From Halioglobus sp. (GTDB taxonomy: Bacteria > Pseudomonadota > Gammaproteobacteria > Pseudomonadales > Halieaceae): a stretch of DNA of 64,000 nt. The stretch is from the NCBI GenBank assembly GCA_020443345.1, contig JAGRIH010000021.1:45018-109017 (forward strand). The letters are read 5' to 3'. Numbering within the stretch: the first letter of the stretch is position 1; each line of letters opens with the position of its first letter. The position numbers were made by a program, and so were the translations under genes. Under the pieces are notes generated by a model, which was not told where the DNA came from, searched no databases, and saw only the letters and a list, made by a program, of their open reading frames with translations. Shown here in pieces: positions 38,950-52,263 of the stretch.

Positions 38950-40095
38950 GTGCGCCTGGCCTGCCTGTTGTACAAGTACTTTCCCTACGGCGGCATGCAG
39001 CGCGACTTCCGCCGGTTCGTGGAAGAGCTGCACGGTCGCGGTCATCACTGTCGCGTGTACTATCTGCAGTGGCAGGGCGATGCGCTGCCCGGCGCCGAGC
39101 TGCGCCGGGTGCCGGTGTCCGCGCTCACCAACCACCGCCGCAACGAGCGCTACCTGCGGTGGGTGCGCGAAGACCTCGCCGCCGATCCAGTCGACGGCGT
39201 GATCGGCTTCAATAAAATGCCCGGCCTGGATATCTACTTCGCCGCGGACTCGTGCTACCTGGAAAAGGCGCACGAGGACCGCAGCTGGCTGTACCGGCGC
39301 GGCGCGCGCTTCAAACATTTTGCGCACTACGAGCGCGCCGTGTTCGCGCCCGCCAGCGCGACCGAGATCCTGTTGATTTCCGAGCGGCAGCGCAGCAGTT
39401 TCCGCCGCTGCTACCACACTCCGGAGCAGCGCCTGCACCTGCTGCCGCCGGGAATTGCGCAGGATCGCCGCGCGCCGCCCGACGCCGCCGCGCGGCGCGC
39501 GGCCAAACGGGACAGCCTGGGCCTCGCCAGCGGGCAGCTCGCGCTGCTGCTGGTTGGCTCCGGCTTCATCACCAAGGGGCTGGACCGCGCCATCGCCGCG
39601 CTGGCCCGGGTGCGCGCGGCGCAGCCGGGTGCCGACGCGCGCCTGCTGGTGGCGGGCCAGGACCGCAGCCGCCGCTTCCAGCGCCTGGCCAGACGGCTGG
39701 GGGTGGGCGCCGCCGTGAGTTTCCTGGGCGGTCGGGACGATGTGCCGGACCTGCTGCTGGCGGCGGACCTGCTGGTCCACCCGGCGCGGCACGAGGCCGC
39801 CGGCATGGTCCTGCTGGAGGCACTGGTGGCCGGGCTGCCCGCGATAGTCACCGACGTGTGCGGCTATGCGCCGCATGTGCAGGCCGCGCGCGGCGGCATC
39901 GTGCTGTCCTCGCCCTACCGCCAGGAGCAGCTGGAAGCTGCCATCCTGCGCACTGTCGATGGCGTGTTCCGCGCCGAGTGCCGCGCCAGCGCCCTGACCT
40001 ACGCCGAACAGACGGACCTGTACTCCATGCACCGCACCGGTGCGGCCCTGATCGAGTCGCTGCTGCGGCGCAAACAGGCGGCGGCAGGTGACTGA
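38950..40095 (+). CDS. waaG: LPS core glycosyltransferase (GT4, WaaG-like)
   Basis: LLYKYFPYGGMQRDF N-terminus typical of WaaG, and the GT4 C-terminal EAAGMVLLEALVAGLP. Start at GTG 38950. Confidence 0.85.
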   Translation: MRLACLLYKYFPYGGMQRDFRRFVEELHGRGHHCRVYYLQWQGDALPGAELRRVPVSALTNHRRNERYLRWVREDLAADPVDGVIGFNKMPGLDIYFAADSCYLEKAHEDRSWLYRRGARFKHFAHYERAVFAPASATEILLISERQRSSFRRCYHTPEQRLHLLPPGIAQDRRAPPDAAARRAAKRDSLGLASGQLALLLVGSGFITKGLDRAIAALARVRAAQPGADARLLVAGQDRSRRFQRLARRLGVGAAVSFLGGRDDVPDLLLAADLLVHPARHEAAGMVLLEALVAGLPAIVTDVCGYAPHVQAARGGIVLSSPYRQEQLEAAILRTVDGVFRAECRASALTYAEQTDLYSMHRTGAALIESLLRRKQAAAGD

Positions 40096-40939
40096 GTACT
40101 ATCTCAGGGAGGATATGGCCGCCGGCGAACTCGCGGCAGTGACCGGGGCCGCGCAGTTGCTGCAGTGGGGTGCGCGGATGGCCGACGGCGCCGCGCCCGG
40201 CGATGTCTACCGGCACCGCGAAGGGCGCAAGACACTGCGCTGCCACTGGCGGGGTCGGCCTTTTTTCCTGAAGCTGCACAGCGGCATCGGCTGGCGGGAA
40301 ATTGCCAAAAACCTGCTGCAACTGCGCGCGCCGGTGCTGGGGGCGGCCAATGAATACCGCGCGGTGAGGGCGCTGGAAAGGCTGGGCGTGGACACGCTGT
40401 CAGTGGCGGCCTACGCCTGCCGCGGCCGCAATCCCGCCACCCGGCAGTCGCTGCTGCTGAGCGATGAACTGGTGGGCACGGTCAGCCTGGAGGAGTACTG
40501 TGCCGATTGGGCCAGCGCGCCGCCGCCCCCGGACATTCGCCTGCGCTTGCTGTGCAAACTGGCGGACACCGCGCGCCGCATGCACGGCGCGGGCATCAAT
40601 CACCGGGACTTCTACCTGTGCCATTTTCACCTGGATCCGGCGACCCTCGAACGGCCCCGGCCGCGCTGTCACCTGATCGATCTGCACCGGGCGCAGTTGC
40701 GCCGGTGCGTGCCGCGGCGCTGGCGTGTCAAGGACCTGGCCGGACTGTATTTCTCCGCCATGGACTGCGGTCTGAGTCGGCGCGATGTGCTGCGTTTTAT
40801 ACGCCACTACAGTGCGGGCGGGCTGCGCGCGGCACTGGGTGAGCAGGCGGGCTTGTGGCGGGATGTGGAGCGTCGCGCACTGCAGCTGTACCGCAGGGAT
40901 CACCGGCGCGAGCCGCCCGCCGGTCCGTGGCAGCGCTGA
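40088..40939 (+). CDS. waaP: LPS core heptose(I) kinase
   Basis: Collinear with P. aeruginosa WaaP as I remember it: GIGWREIAKNLL, PPPPDIRLRLL, GINHRDFYLCHFHLD, IDLHRAQ. Overlaps the waaG stop. Confidence 0.9.
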   Translation: MTEYYLREDMAAGELAAVTGAAQLLQWGARMADGAAPGDVYRHREGRKTLRCHWRGRPFFLKLHSGIGWREIAKNLLQLRAPVLGAANEYRAVRALERLGVDTLSVAAYACRGRNPATRQSLLLSDELVGTVSLEEYCADWASAPPPPDIRLRLLCKLADTARRMHGAGINHRDFYLCHFHLDPATLERPRPRCHLIDLHRAQLRRCVPRRWRVKDLAGLYFSAMDCGLSRRDVLRFIRHYSAGGLRAALGEQAGLWRDVERRALQLYRRDHRREPPAGPWQR

Positions 40940-40947
40940 TGGTATTC

Positions 40948-41748
40948 TCAGAACGCCGCATAGTCCGCGCGCTGCGCCTGTTTGGCCCGCATGCGCCGCA
41001 TCGCGGTGTCGTAGGCCGCCCGCGCCAGAAGCCTGCTCTCCACCGGCTCCAGTGCGGGCATCTGGCGCGCCCAGGCTTGAAAAAAACGCCAGCGGTCGCT
41101 GCGCGATAGCTGGTGCGCGGGCAGCATGTTCAGCTGCACCAGGTTTTTCAGCAGCAGCTTGCCGGGCACCTCCCGGTGGCGCGAGTTACTCTCGTTGTCG
41201 ATAAAGGTGAACCGGTAGCGCTCGCCCTGCCGGTCCGCCAGGATATTGCCGGGACGCAGGTCACCGTGGACAAAGCCGCTGCCGTGCAGCCGTCCCACCT
41301 GGGTGCCCAGCGCGCGCAGGAATGTGCGGCGTCGGTCGGCGGCACCGGCGTCGGCGAAGCGGCGCAGCCACTGTGGTACCGGGTCGCCGGGTACGAGGCG
41401 GGTGAACAGGTACTCGGCGCCGCCCGGGGTGCGGCCCCACAGCACGTTGACCGGAGCCGGGAAACCGCAGTGCAGCAGGGCGTCGCTGTTGTCGCGGGCG
41501 CGCCTGCCGCGGCCCCCGCGCAGCAGCGCCTTCAGCCTCTCCGGCCAGCCGCGTGGCAGAAATGCCTTGTAGTACAGCGCCCGCTGTGGATTGCAGGCGA
41601 CCACGGCAAAGCGCGAGCTGTCGACATAGTGCCAGCCCGCGACTTCCTGCCGCGCACTCAGCGGCGGGGCCAGCAGCACCAGCTCCGCTTCCGGCTCACT
41701 GCTCACTGGTGCGCGCCGCGACCCGGCGCAGCGCAGTTGCGGCTGCAT
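40948..41748 (-). CDS. LPS kinase (Kdo/WaaP/InaA family) paralog, inverted orientation
   Basis: GRLHGSGFVHGDLRPGNILA catalytic loop, FTFIDNE. Confidence 0.75.
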   Translation of the reverse strand: MQPQLRCAGSRRAPVSSEPEAELVLLAPPLSARQEVAGWHYVDSSRFAVVACNPQRALYYKAFLPRGWPERLKALLRGGRGRRARDNSDALLHCGFPAPVNVLWGRTPGGAEYLFTRLVPGDPVPQWLRRFADAGAADRRRTFLRALGTQVGRLHGSGFVHGDLRPGNILADRQGERYRFTFIDNESNSRHREVPGKLLLKNLVQLNMLPAHQLSRSDRWRFFQAWARQMPALEPVESRLLARAAYDTAMRRMRAKQAQRADYAAF

Positions 41749-41810: not shown

Positions 41811-42629
41811 TTGTGGCGGGATTGTGCAGTCGTGACAGCGTCTATTGACAACATCAACACCGCGGCTTCGGAAGGCGCGCCATTGACCTGTCTCGGCGCG
41901 GCCGATGCCGCCACCGAACAGACATTTCGAGAAAAATGCACGGTTCTAAAGACAGGCACCGGCAGTTACGCGGGCCTGTTGCACATCGGTGGTGGCGGTG
42001 AAACGCTGTTCGTAAAATGCTACCTGGCCAAGCATAGCATTGCCCGACTCGCGGGCAAACTGGCGCTGGGCCGCGGCTACACCGCGCGCGCCGCCATGCG
42101 CGCGCTGGCCGGGCGGCTGCGCGTGCCCGCAGAGCGCGGCCTGGTCAGGAACCGTCGATCCGGCAATATCTACCTGTTCAGCGAACACCTGGCCGGCACT
42201 GATCTTGCGCAGTTGTATCGCGGGGGGGAACTGGCGGAACCGGTCCTGCGGCCGCTGCTGTGCCTGGCCGGGGAGTCGCTGGCGCGCATGCACGAGGCGG
42301 GCTGGGTGCACGGCGACTTCAAGTGGGGCAACCTACTGGTCGAGCAGGTACAACCGCCGCGGCTGGCACTGCTTGATTTCGATGGCGCCGGGCGCAGCCG
42401 GCGGGCCGTGCGCCGCGGGCGGGATGTGGCGCGCTTTATCGTCAATGCCGAGGACTACCGCGTGCCCGAGGTGCTGGCGCGGGTGTTTCTGGACGCCTAC
42501 GCAGCGGCGCGCCCGATGAGCGCCGCGCAGGTGCTGTCGCAGGCGGCGCCGGCCCTGCGCAAGCTGCGGGCCCGGCACGATCGGAAATACGGCTTGAGAG
42601 AGGTGGAACTGTTTCATGGGGAGTTCTGA
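41811..42629 (+). CDS. LPS kinase (Kdo/WaaP/InaA family) paralog
   Basis: MHEAGWVHGDFKWGNLLV catalytic loop, LLDFDGA. The start is ambiguous (TTG 41811 or GTG 41832). Confidence 0.75.
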   Translation: MWRDCAVVTASIDNINTAASEGAPLTCLGAADAATEQTFREKCTVLKTGTGSYAGLLHIGGGGETLFVKCYLAKHSIARLAGKLALGRGYTARAAMRALAGRLRVPAERGLVRNRRSGNIYLFSEHLAGTDLAQLYRGGELAEPVLRPLLCLAGESLARMHEAGWVHGDFKWGNLLVEQVQPPRLALLDFDGAGRSRRAVRRGRDVARFIVNAEDYRVPEVLARVFLDAYAAARPMSAAQVLSQAAPALRKLRARHDRKYGLREVELFHGEF

Positions 42630-42873: not shown

Positions 42874-43959
42874 TTAGAAATAAACGTGGGCCTGGAGGAA
42901 GTATTCCTCACCATCCGGGTACAGCGGGTCATCGCTGTCCCGCAGCCGCACCACGGCGCGCAACTGGGTGTGAGACCAGGGAAAATATTCCCAGACGAAG
43001 CTCGCGCGTTTTCTATCGCGATCCTCACCACTGAAGCTCTGGTGTTCAAGAGAAAGCTTAAGATTTTGCCCCTTTACTACCAACCAGTTTGCTTCAAGCA
43101 GAGCGATATCCATTTCGGTATCTGATGCGAGCCTGTCGTCGTCCTCGATCTGGTCATACTCCAGCAACCAGGTCACCGGACCGGTATTGAGTCCTGCGAA
43201 GATGCCGATCAGCTTCCGGTCCACCAGGTCCGTATCGTTATAGCCCGCGCTCACGCCGAGTTGCCCCCAGCCGTCAAGCCAATTGCCGCGAAACATCACC
43301 CACTTGCCATCGTCCACCTCACCGCCCCCGCCCGAGCCGTTGGTAACGGACAACTGCGCCTGGATATGGTGTGTATCGTAACCCAGTTCCACGCCATTAT
43401 CCGGCGTCGAGAAAGTGACGCCGCTGGCCTGTCGCACGAATGCCGTGTCATCCTGTAACCGCCAACCGAAGGGAAGGAAAATCTTTCCCCCTTTCAGATA
43501 CCAGTCCTTCCTCTGGATCTTGACCCAACTCTCCCGATTGATGGAGCCGCCGGGCGCGACTTGCTGGTCAACATAGAGGGCCAGGTACTGGTTGAGCTGC
43601 AACCGGCCATAGAGGGTTACCGCATCGGTGGTGAATTCCAGGTTGCTGTCGACATTGTCCACGTCAAACTGCCGGGCGCTGTAGCGCGCGTTACCGCCAA
43701 GGCGCAGGCCATCGAATACTGCGAAATCCGGCTCCACGGCTTTCTCGGTCAAGGGCCTTACAGAGAGAACGGATGCGCCATAGGCACTGCCGAAAGCCGT
43801 GCGCATGCCGCCGCCTGTGGGGTTGACATGGCATACGTTGCACTCATTGCCGGTCCGGACTGACAGGTAGGGTTCCGCCCGAGAGAGCCCCGCATACAGC
43901 GTCAACAGTAGGACGGCCACTGGCGCTGTGTGCCTGACAAAAGGCAACGTCGGCATCAA
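42874..43959 (-). CDS. predicted outer-membrane beta-barrel protein with N-terminal CxxCH heme motif (fused cytochrome-porin architecture)
   Basis: Signal peptide (...LLLTLYAGLSRAEP), CNVCH 12 residues after the predicted cleavage site (encoded at 43828-43842), alternating amphipathic strands and a C-terminal ...QAHVYF. Confidence 0.6.
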   Translation of the reverse strand: MMPTLPFVRHTAPVAVLLLTLYAGLSRAEPYLSVRTGNECNVCHVNPTGGGMRTAFGSAYGASVLSVRPLTEKAVEPDFAVFDGLRLGGNARYSARQFDVDNVDSNLEFTTDAVTLYGRLQLNQYLALYVDQQVAPGGSINRESWVKIQRKDWYLKGGKIFLPFGWRLQDDTAFVRQASGVTFSTPDNGVELGYDTHHIQAQLSVTNGSGGGGEVDDGKWVMFRGNWLDGWGQLGVSAGYNDTDLVDRKLIGIFAGLNTGPVTWLLEYDQIEDDDRLASDTEMDIALLEANWLVVKGQNLKLSLEHQSFSGEDRDRKRASFVWEYFPWSHTQLRAVVRLRDSDDPLYPDGEEYFLQAHVYF

Positions 43960-45890
43960 TTGTTCTCCGCCCCGGCATCAATCCACTCCCGCACGGACTG
44001 TATCTGGCTGTTGCTCAGCGGTGCACCGCCCAGGGGCATGCGCGAACCGACGGGAGCCGTACCCTCCAGCTTTTGGACGATCAAACTGTTGTTGGCATCT
44101 CCCGGTAACACCCGGGTGAGCGCCGGGTTTTGCGAGCTGGGGACGTTGACCAGATTATCGAAGGCCTGGCCCTGGGACAGGTTCATGCCCGCCGCAGGAG
44201 CGGCTCCGGTGTGGCATCCGGACACGGCGCACGAGTTGTTGAATATCTGGGTCTGAATTTCCGATAGGGTCGTTGTTTCAGGCTCCGGCTCCGGCTCCGG
44301 TTCCGGTTCGGGGGGCGTGGCAAGTGTAAAGGTGACTATCGCGTCTCCACCTCCGGTGCCGTCCCGGTCACCATCCAGCACGCGCCCCTGCACGTCGGTA
44401 AGGGGAGTGCCACCAGTACCCAAGACCGTGAGCTGATAGGTGTCATCCATCGCAGCGACGCCGGTAAAATCCAGCTCGACGGAATTGTCCTCCACCAGCA
44501 CGTTGACGTGACTTATCTCCATCTCATTGCCGTCACTGAAGGAACCGTCACCGCCGCTGGCCAGCAACTGGAATTGTCCGGCCTCCGGCTCGAGAGGCGC
44601 GGCATTGAAGTTAAGCTCAATGGAGGTGGGAAAGCTGTTCACGACGGCACCGTTTGACGGTACCGTGGAGTTGACAAGAAACCGCCCGGAACCCATTTGC
44701 GAGTTGTCGGGCACTATCTGACCCCGCATCGCGCCCTGTGGAAACGCGGGTGTATAGACCTCTGCGTACAATCCCTGATTGCGCAGCGCGCGGGACAGGC
44801 CTTCGGTCAGCGCCGTATCCACGGCGAACCAGTGACTCAAGTTCTGCACGTCCTGCTCTAACGCAATGGCTATGGGGCCGCGCTGGCCGAGCGGCGCCTG
44901 GCGAATGGCGGCACCGGTTGCATCATCGGCCCCGCTGTTGTTCAGGTGAAAGCTGGCGCTGGACTCGCTAACCTGCAGCGTCAATGCCAGCAGTCCGCTG
45001 ACCCCGCTCGTCGATGGCGGTACCACGTCGCCGGGGCTGAGATTGGTGAACATTATCTCCACGTTCTCGCCGGGTAACTGGCCGCGCACTTCACCACCGG
45101 GGTGTTCGGGCGAGTGTACGTTGACGTAGTAATAACCGTTATCCAGGTCCGCCAGATCCTCCGCATCCAACACCTGATGCGCTGCAAACCAGTGGTCCGC
45201 GTTGTCGACATCCTGTGTGAGTTGGATTACCACAGGTCCGTTGACCCCTGCCAGCGCGCGATGGATATGGCTGGCGGTAGCGTCTTGCAGCCCGACCGTG
45301 GTAACGTGGATAGTCAGCTCGGTGGCCTCGGGGCTCAGGGTAATCGCGGCGCGGCCCATCGCAGTGGTATCGACCACCGGCACTTCCTGGCTGCCGGATA
45401 GCTGCAGAAATCGAACGCGTACATCCCCGATAACGATCTGACCGCGCAGCGCGCCGTCCGGCAGTCCCTCGGTGACAACCAGCAAATACAGGCCGCCGGC
45501 CTCCAAAGCCGCCAATTGCGTTTCATCGAGTACAGTGTCCTCGGGCAGCATCCACTGAGTATCGTTGCTGGCGTCCAGTTCGATTTCTACCGGGCCTGAC
45601 TCCCCGGCCAGACCCCGGCGCAGCTGTACCGCCGTGGCGGTCAGCCCCTGCAGATCGACGGTTCCCTGCAGCGTATCGGTGTCGAGATCCAGTTCAAACT
45701 CGGCGGAGGCGCTGGCACCGCTGGAACTCCCCGCCACCACCTGCATGGCGTCAAGCTGTACCTCGATGGTCATGGTATTGGCCGGCTGGGTGTTTGAGTT
45801 GTTATTGTTACCACCATTATTGCAACCGGAGACCAGGGCGATCGTCGCTAAAATCAGTGCCGCTACTAATTGAATTGCATATCGAATCAT
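43956..45890 (-). CDS. lipoprotein with three CHRD domains, an Ig-like domain, a (PE)n linker and a C-terminal cytochrome-c-like (PSCyt-type) domain
   Basis: Lipobox LVSGC. The canonical CHRD repeat is LSGSQEVPVV...ASHIHRALAGVNGPVVIQL...YYVNVHSPEHPGGEVRGQL, flanked by two degenerate repeats ending ...ALRGQIV and ...AMRGQIV. PPEPEPEPEPEPE linker. C-terminal IFNNSCAVSGCHTG...MPLGGAPLSNSQIQSVREWIDAGA. Its stop overlaps the start of the downstream barrel gene by 4 nt. Confidence 0.7.
   Translation of the reverse strand: MIRYAIQLVAALILATIALVSGCNNGGNNNNSNTQPANTMTIEVQLDAMQVVAGSSSGASASAEFELDLDTDTLQGTVDLQGLTATAVQLRRGLAGESGPVEIELDASNDTQWMLPEDTVLDETQLAALEAGGLYLLVVTEGLPDGALRGQIVIGDVRVRFLQLSGSQEVPVVDTTAMGRAAITLSPEATELTIHVTTVGLQDATASHIHRALAGVNGPVVIQLTQDVDNADHWFAAHQVLDAEDLADLDNGYYYVNVHSPEHPGGEVRGQLPGENVEIMFTNLSPGDVVPPSTSGVSGLLALTLQVSESSASFHLNNSGADDATGAAIRQAPLGQRGPIAIALEQDVQNLSHWFAVDTALTEGLSRALRNQGLYAEVYTPAFPQGAMRGQIVPDNSQMGSGRFLVNSTVPSNGAVVNSFPTSIELNFNAAPLEPEAGQFQLLASGGDGSFSDGNEMEISHVNVLVEDNSVELDFTGVAAMDDTYQLTVLGTGGTPLTDVQGRVLDGDRDGTGGGDAIVTFTLATPPEPEPEPEPEPETTTLSEIQTQIFNNSCAVSGCHTGAAPAAGMNLSQGQAFDNLVNVPSSQNPALTRVLPGDANNSLIVQKLEGTAPVGSRMPLGGAPLSNSQIQSVREWIDAGAENN
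44281..44310. repeat. hexanucleotide tandem repeat (GGCTCC/GGTTCC, 5 units) encoding the PE linker
   Basis: ggctcc ggctcc ggctcc ggttcc ggttcg, read directly from the sequence. Confidence 0.9.
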
Positions 45891-46126
45891 GGTCGGGATC
45901 CTCGGCAGGTTTAACTGTAAGTGCCCGCGGCGCCGACCGAAGGTTCGATTAAAAAAAAGTTTCGGGGCTTTGAACCCCCGATCCGGTAAGGAGTACTCAC
46001 AGGATAGGGAATCCGAGCTTTAGGGTGACAACAAAACAGTTGTTACCGGCGATTTGAACTTTTTCCCGATTGGCGGATACTGTGGATACTAGTGTTGGAA
46101 GTGGGTAGCTGTCGGCTATACGTGCG

Positions 46127-46726
46127 ATGTCCGAACTGAACAGCCAGGCGGCTGCCGAGGACCGCCACCATAGGGAACTGCTGGCACGCACCGCCAGGGG
46201 TTCTGTCGAGGCTTTTAACGAACTCTACACCCTGCTCTATACGCCCCTGGTGCGTTTCCTCTACCGCTTTACTCAGTCCAGCGCACTCGCCGAAGAAATT
46301 CTGGACGACACCCTGATGGTGGTCTGGCAAAAGGCCGGCACTTTTCGCGGCGACTCCCGCGCTTTGACCTGGGTGCTGGGCATTGCCGGCCGCAGAGCCT
46401 TGAAATCGGTGCGACAGGAGCGCCATTGTGCCAGTCCGCGAAACTGTCTGTTTCCCGGATCGACCGCTGCGAACGAGTTGTCGCAGTTGGCGACGCGAGA
46501 AGCGCTGGAATGGGCATTGCAACAGCTCAATACAGAACAACGCCTGGCGATTGAAATGGCATACTTTCACGGTTTGAATTGCGAGGAGATTGCATCAGTA
46601 CTGGGCTGTCCGCTCAATACGGCTAAAACACGACTGCACTATGCCCGCCGTCGATTGCGCAAGATATTCGGCAGTGCCGGGGAACCGCTCGACTTCGCTG
46701 ACCTCGACGAGGCAATGGCGCCATGA
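46127..46726 (+). CDS. ECF (group 4) RNA polymerase sigma factor
   Basis: Region 2 (FNELYTLLYTPLVRFLYRFT...AEEILDDTLMVVW) and region 4 HTH (LNTEQRLAIEMAYFHGLNCEEIASVLGCPLNTAKTRLHYARRRL). Confidence 0.9.
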   Translation: MSELNSQAAAEDRHHRELLARTARGSVEAFNELYTLLYTPLVRFLYRFTQSSALAEEILDDTLMVVWQKAGTFRGDSRALTWVLGIAGRRALKSVRQERHCASPRNCLFPGSTAANELSQLATREALEWALQQLNTEQRLAIEMAYFHGLNCEEIASVLGCPLNTAKTRLHYARRRLRKIFGSAGEPLDFADLDEAMAP

Positions 46727-47412
46727 CCAGCAAGTTGAACAGAATCAGTCACCGGCAGGTGGTGGACGCGCTACCGGCATTTATCCGCGGCAAACTCAGC
46801 AGCGAGTTGCAGCGTCAAATACAGGCACACATTGTCAATTGCACCGCCTGCGCCAGCCTGCATCGTCAGGAGTTAAACTTGAGTGGCCTGATCTGTGAGC
46901 CGATGGCGGGCGAAGAAATACTGCTTACCTCGCAGCGGCGCGAGACGAACAGGATGCGCCTGATGCAGCGCATCAAGCAAAATCCGTCGCACCCGGGCGC
47001 AGCGCAGGACAACCAGTGCGTATCGAGCATGCGGTCTAGATTTCCCCGGGTAGTAAGCGTTGCCGCCAGCATGGCAGCAGTGGTTCTGGGCGGCATGCTC
47101 TGGGTGCAATACAGTTATTCCCCAGCGCCGGAAAGCGGGGCAACCTACCTGACCAGATCCTCAATCACCGCACCGCAAACCGCTCCCACCGACGATACCT
47201 ACCGGGTAGTCTTTCAACCGGAGGAAACCCCAGACAGTATTCGTCACTTACTGAGCGTACTGGAGGCGGAGGTGATCAATGGCCCCTCGGCGACCGGGGT
47301 GTACACCCTGGCGTTTAGCCAACCGGCATTGAGCAATGAACAGCGACTGGCGCAGTTGCGCCGGGAGCCCGCCATTTTGTTGGCAGAAAGAAGTGTACAT
47401 CGGGATCGGTAG
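46723..47412 (+). CDS. anti-sigma factor (zf-HC2, single-pass membrane)
   Basis: ATGA overlap with the sigma gene, HIVNCTAC (H-x3-C-x2-C), TM helix VVSVAASMAAVVLGGMLWV and an extracytoplasmic tail of about 85 aa. Confidence 0.8.
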   Translation: MTSKLNRISHRQVVDALPAFIRGKLSSELQRQIQAHIVNCTACASLHRQELNLSGLICEPMAGEEILLTSQRRETNRMRLMQRIKQNPSHPGAAQDNQCVSSMRSRFPRVVSVAASMAAVVLGGMLWVQYSYSPAPESGATYLTRSSITAPQTAPTDDTYRVVFQPEETPDSIRHLLSVLEAEVINGPSATGVYTLAFSQPALSNEQRLAQLRREPAILLAERSVHRDR

Positions 47413-47437: not shown

Positions 47438-48694
47438 ATGTTGGCAGTCCTTGTGCCAGTTCTGTGCGCATGTTTGGCCAGTGCCTGCCAGCACCACGCA
47501 CCACTATCCGCCTCCGACCGGGCCTCCCAGTCACCCAGGCTGTTACTCACTTTCACCCAGAGTGCCGACAAAACCTCCGGCTTAGTGAACAGTTTCAGCG
47601 GGAACTACTTTCGCAGCTACTGGGCTGCTCCGTTGATAACTCAGCACCGGATTATTCAAATTGAGAGGGACTACCCGCTCGTAGAGCAGGAGGGCTGGGA
47701 AATCGAAGCACTGGGAGTTTATTGTGTACTGTTCACCCTGCAACCGGGGGCGGATGCGGCCACCCAGTTGCAGCGACTGCGTCAGGACGAGCGGGTGGAG
47801 AGCGCGCAGTTACTCCAACTATACCAAACCCGCGCCGCCACCGCCTACAACGACCCCTACTTCAGCATCCAGTACGGCGAGGCGCGGGCCTATATCCAGC
47901 AACTTCACCAGTGGTCGACGGGAAAGGGGGTGGATGTGGCGATTATCGATACCGGCGTGGACATTGGCCACCCGGATCTGCAAAGCCAGATCTTCAATAC
48001 CCAGGTGTTCGTTGCCGGCGATTCGGACGACTTCCGCCACGACATTCACGGCACCGCGATGGCCGGAATTATCGCGGCCTCCGCCAACAATGGCACCGGC
48101 ATCGTTGGCCTGGCTCCGGACGCCCGTCTCTGGGTATTAAAAGCCTGCCACCAGCTCCACAGCCGTTCCAGTGTAGCACAGTGCGACAGTTTCACTCTGG
48201 CCAAGGCGCTGAACTACGCTATCGTTCGCAATGTAGACGTACTCAATCTCAGCCTGTCCGGCCCCTATGACCCACTCATCGACAGGTTGATTCAGCGGGC
48301 GCTGAATAAAGATCAGATCGTGGTTGCAGCAGATCCCGGGCGGGGAGCAGACCGATATCCGGCTTTGATAGATGGCGTGCTCGCCGCCAGAGAGGCTCCG
48401 CCGGGACAGGGCATGACCAGCCGCATGGCCGAGCCCATGGTGGTGGTCACCCCCCAGACAGAATTGCTGAGCACGGGGCCGGGCGGCGGCTATGACTTTT
48501 TTACAGGGTCGTCCAATGCGGCGGCTCTGGTCAGTGGGTTGGCGGCCGTGCTTCTCCAAAATAGCAGGGAATGGGCGCCACAGGTGCGGGTGAACTGGAT
48601 CCAGCAGGCGCTGAGGATGGAGCAGCACTGGGTGTCGTTGAACCAGCCGGGGGTTGGAGATCTCGCGGGCTACAAAGACCTCCGGCGACCGTAA
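47438..48694 (+). CDS. S8-family (subtilisin-like) serine peptidase, secreted or lipoprotein-like
   Basis: Catalytic triad contexts VAIIDTGVDIGHPDL (D), HGTAMAGIIAA (H) and GSSNAAALVSG (S). Hydrophobic Cys-containing leader MLAVLVPVLCACLASAC. Start set at ATG 47438. Confidence 0.85.
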   Translation: MLAVLVPVLCACLASACQHHAPLSASDRASQSPRLLLTFTQSADKTSGLVNSFSGNYFRSYWAAPLITQHRIIQIERDYPLVEQEGWEIEALGVYCVLFTLQPGADAATQLQRLRQDERVESAQLLQLYQTRAATAYNDPYFSIQYGEARAYIQQLHQWSTGKGVDVAIIDTGVDIGHPDLQSQIFNTQVFVAGDSDDFRHDIHGTAMAGIIAASANNGTGIVGLAPDARLWVLKACHQLHSRSSVAQCDSFTLAKALNYAIVRNVDVLNLSLSGPYDPLIDRLIQRALNKDQIVVAADPGRGADRYPALIDGVLAAREAPPGQGMTSRMAEPMVVVTPQTELLSTGPGGGYDFFTGSSNAAALVSGLAAVLLQNSREWAPQVRVNWIQQALRMEQHWVSLNQPGVGDLAGYKDLRRP

Positions 48695-48702
48695 TCACTA
48701 CC

Positions 48703-49419
48703 ATGCACCCCGGCCATGCGGCGGCATTATCGATACTGGTGATCACGAAACTGGCCGGCCCGCAGCAAGTGACTGCCGGCGAGCTCGTCTCCACCGGTAG
48801 TATCGGTCTCGCCAGTGGCCAGGTGTACCGGGGCATCGCCCTGGCCAGGGAGACTCTGGTCCCCAACATCAACGTCGCGCTGGAACACAGTTCGGGTGTG
48901 TATGCCCGAACCTGGCTGACCCGGGTGCAACTGGCGGGCCTGGCTTATCCGTCCGACGAAAGCACCTGGCAAACGCTACTGGACGTAGGCTATCTCTGGC
49001 AGTTGCAATCCCACTGGACGATTTCAGCCGCCCACCACTGGTATCACTACAGCGAAAACACCCGTGGGAGTGATCGCGACTATCGCGAATGGTCGGCCAG
49101 CCTGGACTATGGCGCCTACCTGACCCTCAACTACGCCTATACAAATGATTTGTGGGGGCGCGACCTGCGTCAGGACGTAACCACGCTCAGCGGCCGCTGG
49201 CCATTCACTCAGCGCCTTGTTGGCGAGGCCGCCGTCGGCTGGGTCAGCCAGCACGGTCAGCGTGGAGACAGCTACAGTTTCCTGCGCCTCAATGCCGGTT
49301 GTGTGATTCGCGACTGGAGTTTCCAGTTGCAGTTTCATACCACCCACAATGTCGACGGGTACTACCGCAAGAGCCGCATCGGCAATCAGTGGATCGCCCA
49401 GATGGATTGGCACTGGTAG
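48703..49419 (+). CDS. predicted outer-membrane beta-barrel (Gcw_chp/TIGR02001-like)
   Basis: SGQVYRGIALA..PNINVALEHSSGVYARTW resembles the SDYvfRGisq...G.Y.g.W start of that family. Alternating strands and a terminal ...AQMDWHW. The signal peptide is weak. Confidence 0.5.
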   Translation: MHPGHAAALSILVITKLAGPQQVTAGELVSTGSIGLASGQVYRGIALARETLVPNINVALEHSSGVYARTWLTRVQLAGLAYPSDESTWQTLLDVGYLWQLQSHWTISAAHHWYHYSENTRGSDRDYREWSASLDYGAYLTLNYAYTNDLWGRDLRQDVTTLSGRWPFTQRLVGEAAVGWVSQHGQRGDSYSFLRLNAGCVIRDWSFQLQFHTTHNVDGYYRKSRIGNQWIAQMDWHW

Positions 49420-49703: not shown

Positions 49704-49967
49704 CCGGCTCACTGCTCATTGGCAGCTGCATCGAATCGGTGTCACTGTTGCGGTTTCATAAGACCGGGCATGTCGGCTGTGAGATAATGCTATTAAAGAC
49801 ATTTTACCTATATGGTCCAACTTATGGTGGATGCCTACGCAGCGGCGCGCTCGATGAGCGCCGCGCAGGTGCTGTCGCAGGCGGCGCCGGCCCTGCGCAA
49901 GCTGCGGGCCCGGCACGATCGGAAATACGGCCTGAGAGAGGTGGAACTGTTTCATGGGGAGTTCTGA
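49704..49967 (+). pseudogene. remnant of the LPS kinase locus: diverged promoter region plus the 3' end of the kinase gene
   Basis: 49704-49807 is a diverged copy of 41701-41796, including the first codons of the minus-strand kinase and the TGaGATAAT element. 49829-49967 is the last 46 codons of the + kinase. The body of the gene is missing. Confidence 0.8.
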
Positions 49968-50004
49968 GCCGCTAAAGCTGTACTGGTCATCCAGCAAACC
50001 GAAT
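49829..50004 (+). repeat. direct repeat, right copy (DR-R)
   Basis: Matches 42491-42666 with 3 mismatches. Confidence 0.95.
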
Positions 50005-50736
50005 GTCGGCGACTGGCTCTCGCCGCGGATTGTGCAGGCGCACACCAGCCGCGAGGTGGTACACGCGTCTGCCAGGCGCTGCGAATTCATGGCGATCGGC
50101 AGCATTCTGCACAAGGCGAAAAATTTGCCCTTCTCGCCGCGGCTGAGCGTGTGGGGCAGCGGCTACATGCACGATGGCCCCCCGGTAAAACTGAAACACC
50201 GCGTACACGCGGTGCGCGGCCGCCTGACAGCGGCACGCCTCAAGAACCACTGCGATCTGCCCTGCGGTGACCCCGGCCTGCTGGCGGCGCGGGTTTTTCC
50301 CCACTGCGCCGCTGCGCCGGTGCCGGGTCGGGTGGGCGTGGTGCCCCACTATACCGATCGCGACGAGCCGGCCGTGCGGCGTTTCGTCGAGCGCGTACCG
50401 GGTGCGCTCGCCATTGACATATTCGATGATGTGGAGGGGTTCCTGTGCAAACTCACGACCTGTTCTTTCGTGTTGTCCTCCAGTCTGCACGGCCTCATTC
50501 TGGCCGACGCCTTCAATATTCCCAACCAGTGGATCCGCTTGTCCGACCGGGTCGAGGGGCGGGATTTCAAGTTTTATGATTACTACAGCGTATTTGACCT
50601 GGCGCCGCCGCAATTCGCCGACCTGGAGCAGGTGGGCCGGGCAGAAATCGAGAGGCTGCAGCGCGACTACCGGCGCCCGGGCCTGGAAGCGGTCTGTGAT
50701 GCCCTGGCCGCGGCGTTTCCCGCGGAGTATCGGTAA
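49954..50736 (+). CDS. polysaccharide pyruvyl transferase family protein
   Basis: N-terminal ...SSSKPNVGDWLSPRIV (NxGDxLS motif) and C-terminal SSSLHGLILADAFNIP. Confidence 0.75.
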   Translation: MGSSEPLKLYWSSSKPNVGDWLSPRIVQAHTSREVVHASARRCEFMAIGSILHKAKNLPFSPRLSVWGSGYMHDGPPVKLKHRVHAVRGRLTAARLKNHCDLPCGDPGLLAARVFPHCAAAPVPGRVGVVPHYTDRDEPAVRRFVERVPGALAIDIFDDVEGFLCKLTTCSFVLSSSLHGLILADAFNIPNQWIRLSDRVEGRDFKFYDYYSVFDLAPPQFADLEQVGRAEIERLQRDYRRPGLEAVCDALAAAFPAEYR

Positions 50737-50760
50737 CTGCCGCCCAACGCCCGGTGGCGT

Positions 50761-52263
50761 TTAGCGCGCCCGGGTGGCGACAATGCGGACATCGCCGTGG
50801 CGCCCGCCCTCGAAGACGACAATCTCGTGCAAGCCGTGGCGTTGTAAAAAAGTACGCCAGCGCGCTGCATCCGGCGGCCGCACCAGCATGGCCAGATAGT
50901 CCCGGCCGCCCCAGAATGCATCGTCCGACAGCATGCTCCACATGTCGAAGCGCTTGCGTGAAGCACTGTCCCACTCGATATCGCGACCACTGAAATAGGC
51001 GATGTAGCGTTCGTTGGTGACTAGCGTGGCGTGCTCCGGGGTATTTTCAGCCAGCCACAGCGTGGCATCGCGGATAAAAATCTTTTCGCTTCTGGCATTG
51101 TCCAGGCTGTCCAGCACAAAGGCCAGCAACAGGGCGGCAATGAGCAACTTCACCCAGGTGCGGCCGCTGTTCTGCCACAGTGCGTTGAGAACAAAGGGTA
51201 CGTAGAGCAGGGCGAAGATGACCAACTGATTGCTGTAGCGTTCCAGCATAAAGCGGTTGATCAGGGTGAAGGCGAGCAGATAGCCGAGGCTAATCAACAG
51301 GTGCGCGTGGAGCAGGACCGCATCCTGCGGTCGAAACCGCGCCAGCAGCTTGTCCTTTGCGCCCCACAACAGCACCGCGACATAGGGCCAGGTCAGCGCT
51401 CGACCGATATTCAGCAACAGGATTGCCAGCAGGCCCGCCAGTACCGCCGCGATTCCGTCTTCCCGCGCGGAGCCGCGCAACAGCAGCTCTGCGTTGGCCG
51501 CTGCGAGCTGTGTCAGCTCGCCGGGAACGGCCAGCAGTCGCGTGACATGGACCCTGATACCGGGCAGTTGCAGTGGCTGCGGCAGTACGCTGACCACGAT
51601 TGCCGCGCCGATGCCCGCGACCACCAACACCGGCCATAACAGGCTCAGACCAAGCCGCAGTTTGTGCGGTTGGTCCTTGAGCAACAAAAGGCTCAGCGGC
51701 GCCAGTGCGGCGAAGAACAGTCCCTCGAAGCGAAACAGCGAGGCGAGCATCACACAGACCAGCCAGCCCAGCCGGTGTCGCCAGCGCGCGGTGCGCAGAT
51801 ACAACAGCAGTTGCCGCAGCGACAGCACGATGAAGGCCCAATAGGCCGGGTCGCGGACGATGGAACTGCGGTAGTCGTTCAGCATGGGGTGGGACAGTAC
51901 GACGACGGCGGCAAACAACTGCACCCGGCGGTCGCCGCCCAGCGTGTGCACGGTGGCGACAAACGCCGCGCAAAACAGCGCGTAGAACAGCGAATTCAGT
52001 AACTGTCCCGCCCACTCCAGCGGCAGCCCGGTCCACTTGTGCAGCAGCGCGAAGCAGATGGAAATCAGCGGGCGATCAAACAACTGTTGGCTGGCCACAA
52101 AGCCGTCGCGCAGGTAGGCATCGGCACTGCGCAAGTATATGATGGCATCGCGGTTGAGCAGCGGGTCGATGGCGATCAGCCATCCGGACAGCAACAGGCT
52201 GGCCAGTACGATCCAGCGGTAATCGATGGGGGCCATGGCCGCTGCGGCGGGATTATTGTGCAC
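50761..52263 (-). CDS. integral-membrane glycosyltransferase (GT39/GT83, ArnT/PMT-like) with C-terminal soluble domain
   Basis: About 11 hydrophobic segments and an N-terminal loop NRDAIIYLRSADAYL..., as in PMT_2-type enzymes. LPS locus context. Confidence 0.6.
   Translation of the reverse strand: MHNNPAAAAMAPIDYRWIVLASLLLSGWLIAIDPLLNRDAIIYLRSADAYLRDGFVASQQLFDRPLISICFALLHKWTGLPLEWAGQLLNSLFYALFCAAFVATVHTLGGDRRVQLFAAVVVLSHPMLNDYRSSIVRDPAYWAFIVLSLRQLLLYLRTARWRHRLGWLVCVMLASLFRFEGLFFAALAPLSLLLLKDQPHKLRLGLSLLWPVLVVAGIGAAIVVSVLPQPLQLPGIRVHVTRLLAVPGELTQLAAANAELLLRGSAREDGIAAVLAGLLAILLLNIGRALTWPYVAVLLWGAKDKLLARFRPQDAVLLHAHLLISLGYLLAFTLINRFMLERYSNQLVIFALLYVPFVLNALWQNSGRTWVKLLIAALLLAFVLDSLDNARSEKIFIRDATLWLAENTPEHATLVTNERYIAYFSGRDIEWDSASRKRFDMWSMLSDDAFWGGRDYLAMLVRPPDAARWRTFLQRHGLHEIVVFEGGRHGDVRIVATRAR

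Follow-up and report, generated by a model that had tools for sequence, protein, structure and literature searches.

Is an outer-membrane porin that carries a single haem c motif at its N-terminus a member of the Cyc2 iron oxidases, a relative of them, or a porin whose cysteines serve some other end? The question is raised by a gene of Halioglobus sp. (Gammaproteobacteria, Halieaceae), which lies on the minus strand of a 64,000-nucleotide stretch of contig JAGRIH010000021.1 (assembly GCA_020443345.1, positions 45,018 to 109,017 of the forward strand). This stretch is hereafter the window, and its coordinates are used throughout. An original prediction, made from the letters of the window alone, had described the product as a fused cytochrome-porin of Cyc2-like architecture, without claiming homology, and had paired it with the lipoprotein encoded directly upstream. 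We find that the protein belongs to a large, apparently undescribed family of haem-porins, which we read as an unrecognised sister family of the Cyc2-type fused cytochrome-porins, and that the part of the neighbouring lipoprotein conserved across the family is a c-type cytochrome domain resembling those of FoxE. We put at about even odds (a probability of roughly 0.5) the proposal that porin and lipoprotein form a two-component outer-membrane electron conduit, controlled by an extracytoplasmic function (ECF) sigma factor and possibly serving Fe(II). The parts of the porin are listed here, with residue numbers that follow the 361-residue reading from the TTG start.

42874..43956, minus strand: haem-porin gene, 360 amino acids from ATG (43956) or 361 from the alternative TTG (43959); stop codon at 42874-42876.
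43876..43959, minus strand: signal peptide, residues 1-28, read from the sequence, with predicted cleavage after SRA and before EPY.
43765..43875, minus strand: haem module, residues 29-65, EPYLSVRTGNE-CNVCH-VNPTGGGMRTAFG and then a helix, delimited by invariant positions and the Cyc2 profile match.
43828..43842, minus strand: CNVCH, residues 40-44, candidate covalent haem c attachment site, including the proximal His.
42877..43707, minus strand: 16-strand beta-barrel, residues 85-361, from AlphaFold2, Foldseek and a sub-threshold Porin_4 match.
43402..43479, minus strand: long loop between strands 5 and 6, residues 161-186 (FLPFGWRLQDDTAFVRQASG), from the secondary structure of the model and conservation.
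42886..42888, minus strand: His358, four residues from the C-terminus, invariant in a 34-sequence alignment; candidate distal haem ligand in the model.

The N-terminus, MMPTLPFVRHTAPVAVLLLTLYAGLSRA followed by EP, looks like a Sec signal peptide, and conservation in the family alignment sets in at A28-E29-P30. CNVCH follows 11 residues after the point of predicted cleavage, and HVYF closes the protein; the open reading frame (ORF) of 361 amino acids at 42874..43959, its signal peptide, the motif at 43828-43842 about 12 residues past the cleavage site and the terminal aromatic residue are thus all as originally described. The start codon is likelier to be the ATG at 43956, which stands as the second codon, after the TTG, and has GGAG eight bases 5′ of it, because the database protein P0001, 100% identical to the porin, is 360 amino acids long. 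With this start the overlap with the upstream lipoprotein gene is 1 nt (TGATG) rather than the predicted 4 nt, a figure that applies to the TTG start only; the tight coupling of the two genes stands.

A word-indexed search with the porin returned 717 relatives and an exhaustive HMMER search 972 cluster representatives (50% identity clusters) at E ≤ 0.001. When species were scanned by one genome each, 415 held a relative, the closest being 62% identical; tblastn against plasmids gave no match. Locus counts expressed below as fractions of 80 refer to the best 80 of these 415 species genomes. By record title almost all of the 80 are Gammaproteobacteria (two are labelled just Proteobacteria), and they come from Halieaceae, Seongchinamella, Porticoccaceae, Kangiellaceae, Spongiibacteraceae, Woeseiaceae, Steroidobacteraceae, Lysobacterales, Nevskiales and Granulosicoccaceae. 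Cultured carriers are Steroidobacter flavus, S. agaridevorans, Peristeroidobacter soli, Povalibacter uvarum and Seongchinamella sediminis and unica. Homologues are annotated at source as ‘hypothetical protein’, ‘porin’ or ‘phosphate-selective porin’. No earlier account of the family turned up in a literature search on porins with CHRD and CXXCH, on further fused cytochrome-porins and on Cyc2 in Steroidobacter, Woeseia or Halieaceae, although its coverage is incomplete and one may exist.

Conservation of the motif, on which the prediction of a haem-carrying porin hung, is nearly complete. CXXCH is invariant in the 34-sequence alignment, which spans down to 38% identity, and it lies near the N-terminus in 209 of 213 full-length homologues, where it is the sole CXXCH in all but one of the 209 (208/209); it is therefore not a chance motif. 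Within the haem module E29, P30, G37, C40, C43, H44, N46, G49, G51, R53 and G57 are invariant in the same alignment, and the family signature reads A-E-P-[YFW]-[LIF]-[AS]-[VI]-[RQK]-x-G-x-x-CxxCH-[VT]-N-P-[TS]-G-G-G-x-R-x-x-[FY]-G. The median length is 364 amino acids, with 101 of 209 members reaching 365 and 10 of 209 reaching 400.

The AlphaFold2 model of the porin, built with 34 homologues, has a mean predicted local distance difference test score (pLDDT) of 86.7 and a predicted TM-score (pTM) of 0.82. Three short helices occupy residues 30-65 and are followed by 16 beta strands in residues 85-360, with pLDDT mostly above 90 in the barrel. Foldseek matched the model to 16-strand porins of the PDB with E-values down to 2e-14, including OprP (2o4v) and OprO (4rjw) at query-normalised TM-scores (TMq) of 0.64-0.65; the barrel first deduced from alternating residues is accordingly a closed one in the model. 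General and phosphate-selective porins (OprP/OprO, VhChiP, OmpT and Omp32) have this 16-strand fold in common with the Halioglobus protein at TMq 0.6-0.65, and the conserved long loop after strand 5 is likewise reminiscent of L3 in general porins. It departs from them in its N-terminal haem module and in outer loops that are very short and acidic, and its sequence shows no recognisable Arg ladder.

The loop between strands 5 and 6 is the most conserved segment of the barrel, and one of the two automatically chosen most-conserved peptide patterns falls within it. It carries Q/E-D-D (LPFGWRLQDD in the Halioglobus protein), and with these acidic residues it may, on the model, be a constriction loop of the L3 type. 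Short, acidic outer loops are predicted as well (E-DD in L4, EDDD in L6 and DSDD..DGEE in L8, in model strand order), which together with the acidic loop would fit a cationic substrate such as Fe2+. By strand alternation in the model His358 faces the lumen near the periplasmic rim, a position from which it might act as the distal haem ligand; a His four residues from the C-terminus is found in 200 of 209 full-length homologues and is absent from Cyc2-like sequences.

No curated model claims the porin, in line with the suspicion of an undescribed family. A Pfam scan gave nothing above threshold (Porin_4 scored 23.3 bits against a cut-off of 27, and Porin_O_P fell below its gathering threshold), and an NCBIfam scan gave no above-threshold family and no MtrB/PioB match. 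Some homologues carry precomputed matches to PF13609 (Porin_4) or PF07396 (Porin_O_P), and the barrel is therefore probably a remote member of the porin superfamily. A search of PDB sequences with the family profile found nothing meaningful; a match to the ‘c-type cytochrome’ 8e5f (E 1.2) was set aside as noise from the signal peptide and CXXCH.

Cyc2 serves as Fe(II) oxidase in Acidithiobacillus ferrooxidans, Mariprofundus ferrooxydans PV-1 and Gallionellaceae. Its defining traits are a signal peptide, a single CXXCH, a barrel of 16 strands like that of OprO/P, and two motifs around the haem site, AXPXFAR[Q/K][T/Y] ahead of it and PXL behind it (Keffer et al. 2021, PMC8406198). The pipeline of those authors and FeGenie apply a minimum length of 365 amino acids, and most confirmed members have at least 400; OprO and OprP were the templates for modelling the barrel, and the haem segment was proposed to plug its periplasmic mouth (PMC8406198). 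A comparison set was fished from plasmids with a consensus peptide. Its plasmid and megaplasmid sources were Ralstonia, Caballeronia, Paraburkholderia, Ideonella, Methylocystis, Polymorphobacter and Acidithiobacillus ferrooxidans, and sequences were accepted only once the published AXPXFARQT...CXXCH...PXL signature was seen. A profile search added 118 more, of which 102 have a FARQT-type motif (P.F[AN][RAK][QK][TY]) and 115 have CxxCH..PxL, so that the set fits the published definition.

Against this definition the Halioglobus porin has the signal peptide, a single N-terminal CXXCH, which in both groups lies within about a dozen residues of the mature N-terminus, and the 16-strand OprO/OprP-like barrel by AlphaFold2 and Foldseek. 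The flanking motifs differ. Not one of 269 family sequences matches P.FA[RK][QKR][TY], and the Halioglobus porin reads AEPYLSVRT at that position, retaining only the A, the P and the spacing. The PXL that stands four residues past CXXCH in Cyc2 is absent, its place being taken in the family by CH-[VT]-N-P-[TS]-G-G-G-x-R. At 360 or 361 amino acids the porin is below the 365 cut-off; the Cyc2-like proteins fetched are mostly 440-480 amino acids long. A hidden Markov model (HMM) built from eight Cyc2-like proteins, which is not one of the HMMs of FeGenie, scored the porin at 10.6 bits through its N-terminus only. Because the flanking motifs and the length do not fit, though the haem module and the 16-strand architecture are common to both, we do not file the family as Cyc2.

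The haem modules themselves are nevertheless similar beyond architecture, which goes further than the original prediction had ventured. Profile-profile comparison with the Cyc2-like proteins is significant for the haem module alone: full-length profiles aligned at 94% probability, mature haem modules with signal peptides removed at 96.4% (hhalign, E 1.3e-9), and deeper profiles at 95.5%, with E-values in the range 1e-7 to 1e-9. The modules have the spacing A-x-P-x-hydrophobic-A-x-x-x-G-x-x-CxxCH, then F/Y-G, in common, and some family members read AEPYFAVQTG..C..CH, close to A.PAFARQTG..C..CH of Cyc2. A greedy full-length alignment added columns of low confidence only. A position-weight test against ‘decoy’ CxxCH sites was uninformative, nearly all decoys being family members or partner domains, and we therefore rely on the hhalign comparison with signal peptides removed. 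Other features set the family apart from Cyc2: the near-terminal His, an obligate lipoprotein cytochrome partner, linkage to an ECF gene that may control it, and hosts that are not known as iron oxidisers. In the Cyc2-like loci fetched, as in the haem-porin loci, a c-type cytochrome gene adjoins the porin gene; it follows each Cyc2-like gene of L008 (a Caballeronia plasmid), L010, L011, L093 and L095, where the Cyc2-like genes are annotated just ‘cytochrome C’ or ‘hypothetical protein’. Some 0.7 kb upstream L008 carries a HiPIP gene as well. The start annotated in L008 and in L092 falls past the haem motif, so that the protein as deposited is missing the signal peptide together with some or all of the haem module.

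The partner of the haem-porin is encoded directly upstream on the same strand, with the following parts.

43956..45890, minus strand: partner gene, a 644-amino acid lipoprotein with lipobox LVSG-C23, three CHRD repeats, an immunoglobulin (Ig)-like domain, a PEPEPE linker and a C-terminal cytochrome c domain.
44691..45773, minus strand: three CHRD repeats, approximately residues 40-400, Pfam PF07452 in three stretches, E 1.7e-69.
43959..44276, minus strand: C-terminal c-type cytochrome domain, residues 539-644 (106 amino acids), from profile matches, Met-Pro and C-Xn-CH.
44211..44231, minus strand: CAVSGCH, a CX4CH variant of the haem-attachment motif, residues 554-560, from the domain alignment.
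44034..44039, minus strand: Met-Pro, residues 618-619, candidate distal Met ligand, invariant in the domain alignment and aligned with RMP of FoxE.

That porin and lipoprotein are a pair, as first supposed, is supported by conserved adjacency: a phmmer survey found the cytochrome domain in the gene adjoining the porin gene in 74/80 loci, and four of the six loci that lack it are cut by a contig end. CHRD was not the constant element that the co-occurrence survey had been meant to look for, since it occurs within the fetched flanks of 32/80 loci only, sometimes as a separate gene; the constant part is the c-type cytochrome domain. Four relatives read by hand bear this out, the partner varying in everything but that domain. 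In the related loci C-Xn-CH and Met-Pro are present in all 115 domain copies, which occur one to four per partner, and for this reason the domain looks like a genuine c-type cytochrome domain. The motif is CX2CH in 76 copies, CX4CH in 38 and CX3CH in one, and the CX4CH of the Halioglobus partner looks like a clade-specific variant. Pfam models came close without reaching threshold: PSCyt1 (PF07635) scored 14.3 bits on the Halioglobus domain against a cut-off of 22, and among 19 domain members the best E-values were 0.012 for PSCyt1 and 0.006 for Cytochrome_CBB3 (PF13442), also sub-threshold. The partner has weak Pfam matches to Big_5 and CopC as well (CopC-like, E 0.0018).

Searched against the PDB, the domain profile found FoxE (5mab) as its best match (E 9.8e-10), followed by the C-terminal haem domain of hydrazine synthase alpha (E 0.0019). 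Both haem domains of FoxE, the Fe(II) oxidoreductase of Rhodobacter ferrooxidans SW2 (PDB 5mab/5mvo), align with the partner domain and have in common with it the R-M-P distal Met region and a W-I-x-x-G-A C-terminal helix. The partner thus has the c-type motif and distal Met of a FoxE-like haem domain, with CX4CH in the Halioglobus clade against CXXCH in FoxE. FoxE itself is soluble and periplasmic, has two haems and belongs to a foxEYZ operon (PMC10654088). The partner, by contrast, is a lipoprotein in which one cytochrome domain is joined to CHRD and Ig-like domains; across the family the domain sits in an outer-membrane lipoprotein, in one to four copies, is often fused to CHRD or Ig-like domains and is paired with a haem-porin. 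ORF clustering of the loci revealed no FoxY- or FoxZ-like gene family recurring among the neighbours.

Further observations concern the partner and its domains. Stand-alone metagenomic proteins (P0271-P0289) of 108-171 amino acids hold little beyond a CX4CH cytochrome domain, several with a lipoprotein-like N-terminus and one from a Gemmatimonadetes metagenome-assembled genome; the CX4CH domain therefore also circulates alone and outside Gammaproteobacteria. Several CHRD repeats (window 44691-45773, minus strand; L005:9116-12091) bear recurring His motifs, such as ..SHIH..AG.NG.. and ..H[ST]P.HP.GE.RGQ., which suggest a metal site. Many Steroidobacteraceae-type and similar loci (L040, L045, L046, L048, L051, L054, L059, L060, L063, L065, L072, L079 and others) have a second gene, with CHRD and a C-terminal cytochrome domain, usually divergent and upstream of a short cytochrome lipoprotein gene; these loci thus encode two cytochrome lipoproteins besides the haem-porin.

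Divergent from the pair lies a set of genes that suggests how it may be controlled.

45942..45976, no strand assigned: paired opposed −35-like boxes between the partner and ECF sigma genes, GGTTCG-N23-TGAACC on the plus strand and GGTTCA-N23-CGAACC on the minus strand.
46127..46726, plus strand: ECF sigma factor, Pfam Sigma70_r2, Sigma70_r4_2 and Sigma70_ECF.
46723..47412, plus strand: anti-sigma factor with a zf-HC2 (ZAS-type) motif, PF13490 at E 2.1e-7 and an NCBIfam anti-sigma match.
47438..48694, plus strand: subtilisin-type S8 protease with a lipoprotein-like signal (LASA-C), Peptidase_S8 at E 4.4e-28, mycosin-like at 1.4e-41.
48703..49419, plus strand: putative small outer-membrane barrel of the TorF/Gcw_chp family, from Pfam and NCBIfam matches.

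An ECF sigma gene lies within 8 kb of the porin in 47-49/80 loci, the zf-HC2 anti-sigma factor and S8 lipoprotein protease are found in 42/80, and a TorF/Gcw_chp-type small barrel in 39/80; all-against-all clustering of neighbouring ORFs found the ECF, anti-sigma/S8 and TorF-like families to be the only other recurrent ones. In the protease Asp, His and Ser occupy the positions expected of a catalytic triad. GGTTCA-N21-25-TGAACC with an A/T-rich spacer recurs at the same place in at least 15 related loci, and we infer from this that the paired boxes are back-to-back ECF-type promoters for the divergent operons. The ECF classification paper has no entry with a matching gene context. A hairpin followed by T8 upstream of the partner (45962-45981, minus strand) had been considered as a terminator, a reading dropped on inspection of related loci, which suggest that it forms part of the paired boxes and A/T-rich spacer; it could still act as a regulatory hairpin.

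The original prediction had also placed the gene in an LPS (lipopolysaccharide)-locus island. The island part fits the base composition, as G+C content is 0.58-0.62 from about 42.6 to 52 kb (the module and following genes) against 0.69-0.73 in the adjoining LPS-core genes, a drop compatible with horizontal acquisition or with a variable surface-polysaccharide region. The link to LPS appears incidental: around the module in the few relatives whose surroundings were read more widely (L005-L007) the ECF sigma factor, zf-HC2 anti-sigma factor and S8 protease are kept (with a TorF-like barrel in L005) and LPS genes are absent. In the window three Kdo/WaaP-family LPS kinase-like genes in alternating orientation adjoin the module (40088-40939, plus; 40948-41748, minus; 41811-42629, plus), the last convergent with the porin gene, and two heptosyltransferase-like genes and a GT4 gene precede them. 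On the other side, within the low-G+C stretch, 49954-52263 holds a 260-amino acid gene with a weak polysaccharide pyruvyl transferase match and a 500-amino acid minus-strand gene without a family match; neither is kept beside the module in other genomes.

Taken as an electron conduit, the pair would work as follows. The N-terminal segment of the porin, about 40 residues, would carry one covalent haem c (Cys40, Cys43, His44) and close off the barrel at its periplasmic mouth, the arrangement proposed for Cyc2. The partner, as an outer-membrane lipoprotein, would hold its cytochrome domain on a flexible tether and exchange electrons with the porin haem, with Met as the probable sixth ligand. Inward electron flow seems most likely: a small soluble reductant, for which Fe2+ is the leading candidate, would enter through the short-looped acidic outer face and reduce the porin haem, from which the lipoprotein cytochrome would take the electron and hand it to general carriers of the periplasm. 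The neighbouring ECF sigma factor would drive expression through the back-to-back promoters, with the zf-HC2 anti-sigma factor and S8 lipoprotein protease as the switch.

Such a system would resemble the MtrCAB, MtoAB/PioAB and Geobacter Pcc conduits. These too move electrons across the outer membrane, the role proposed here, and combine a barrel in that membrane with c-type cytochromes that are encoded next to it and include a lipoprotein. In those conduits barrels of 20 to 28 strands sheathe a separate multihaem cytochrome (8-12 haems) and themselves bear no haem. The haem-porin pair differs in having 16 strands, a haem site fused to the barrel and a partner with one to four haems as judged by motif; it does not fit the MtrB/PioB family either, with its 26-28 or so strands, N-terminal CXXC and decahaem neighbour.

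Several points weigh against the conduit or against iron as its substrate. Compared barrel to barrel, the profiles of the family and the Cyc2-like proteins gave 0.7% probability and no signal, and since the barrels are without detectable sequence similarity it is possible that a similar haem peptide was fused independently to a different porin. No inner-membrane redox protein recurs among the neighbouring ORFs clustered from the 80 loci. For the partner domain, structure prediction reached moderate confidence (pLDDT 71) and Foldseek gave weak matches, the two best being FoxE and hydrazine synthase alpha, as in the sequence search. The match to FoxE does not by itself indicate iron, because the fold class also takes in the hydrazine synthase domain and PSCyt1, and to our knowledge Steroidobacter, Povalibacter and Seongchinamella are aerobic heterotrophs and not known iron oxidisers. 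The similarity to Cyc2 and FoxE points to Fe(II) oxidation, a reading we hold loosely given the breadth of the FoxE-like class, these hosts, a direction of flow that the sequence does not encode and haem binding that is predicted. For both proteins that prediction comes from motifs; CX4CH is an uncommon haem-attachment motif, and MtrB/PioB porins have an N-terminal CXXC with no haem site, so that a Cys pair at the porin N-terminus need not bind haem. This last precedent lends some weight to a different account, in which CXXCH is a disulfide or metal motif of a cation-selective porin whose metal is handled by the CHRD/CopC-like lipoprotein; the acidic barrel loops, the weak CopC-like match (E 0.0018) and the His-rich CHRD repeats of the Halioglobus partner would suit it. 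We think it improbable, the least so favoured of those considered here, as a His follows the second Cys in every homologue bearing the motif, the conserved partner element is the cytochrome domain while the CHRD and CopC-like parts are dispensable across the family, and the flanking residues match the haem module of Cyc2, which is haem-bound by experiment (PMC8406198).

If haem is bound, the same pair could also run the other way, passing electrons outward to an external oxidant or scavenging reactive oxygen species at the surface, with the ZAS-type anti-sigma factor switching it on under envelope or oxidative stress. The direction is not fixed by the sequence, aerobic heterotrophs would be suitable hosts for an outward or protective role, CHRD, present in many partners, is distantly superoxide dismutase-like in Pfam, and the H-x3-C-x2-C zinc motif known from redox-responsive ZAS proteins is present in the anti-sigma factor, which also gives a weak RsrA match. 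Membrane-bound ZAS proteins, however, often use zinc structurally, so the motif does not imply redox sensing, and one haem at the periplasmic mouth of so narrow a barrel (16 strands) is out of reach of a solid acceptor outside the cell. Moreover, the only characterised proteins with this haem module, the Cyc2 proteins, take electrons in (PMC8406198), and we regard outward flow as the less likely direction by a good way, though the most credible of the alternatives. Linkage to ECF sigma, anti-sigma and S8 genes, seen in roughly half of the loci, and a protease beside an anti-sigma factor, suggestive of regulated proteolysis, would also be expected if the pair were mainly a sensor that, in the manner of cell-surface signalling, relays the redox or metal-binding state of the outer-membrane haem proteins to the protease and anti-sigma factor while the ECF sigma factor controls other genes. 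The paired boxes, which face both the ECF and the cytochrome operons, would instead make the pair an output of the ECF factor; no ECF module is found within 8 kb in 31-33/80 loci (some on short contigs), whereas the pair itself is constant, and no TonB-box-like or signalling extension is evident. A sensor therefore seems unlikely to us, and the inducible, inward-directed conduit remains the reading that we prefer.

Cyc2 is currently the main genetic marker for inferring neutrophilic iron oxidation in genomes and metagenomes. The haem-porins add a second large family of the fused design, with 972 clusters at 50% identity and 415 species genomes, and marker-gene tools would probably miss them on the standard grounds of motif, length and HMM score, since they lack the Cyc2 motif and often fall under the length cut-off. 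Should the proteins bind no haem, the finding would shrink to a new porin family with a conserved Cys pair. The natural CX4CH and CXXCH variants of one domain and the candidate barrel-borne ligand His358 are of interest for cytochrome maturation and design, and since cultured carriers exist the idea is directly testable. Woeseiaceae, Halieaceae and Steroidobacteraceae are common in marine sediments and soils, and if the family is being missed, the capacity for outer-membrane electron exchange would be under-counted, notably in these groups. With its FoxE-like cytochrome lipoprotein and, in many of the genomes, a probable ECF switch, the haem-porin makes a compact system of two to six genes. 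We suggest, tentatively and with less conviction than the conduit itself, that this unrecognised Cyc2-type branch and its lipoprotein may give abundant heterotrophic Gammaproteobacteria of marine sediment and soil (Halieaceae, Woeseiaceae, Steroidobacteraceae and relatives) an inducible outer-membrane oxidation of dissolved Fe(II) or another small reductant.

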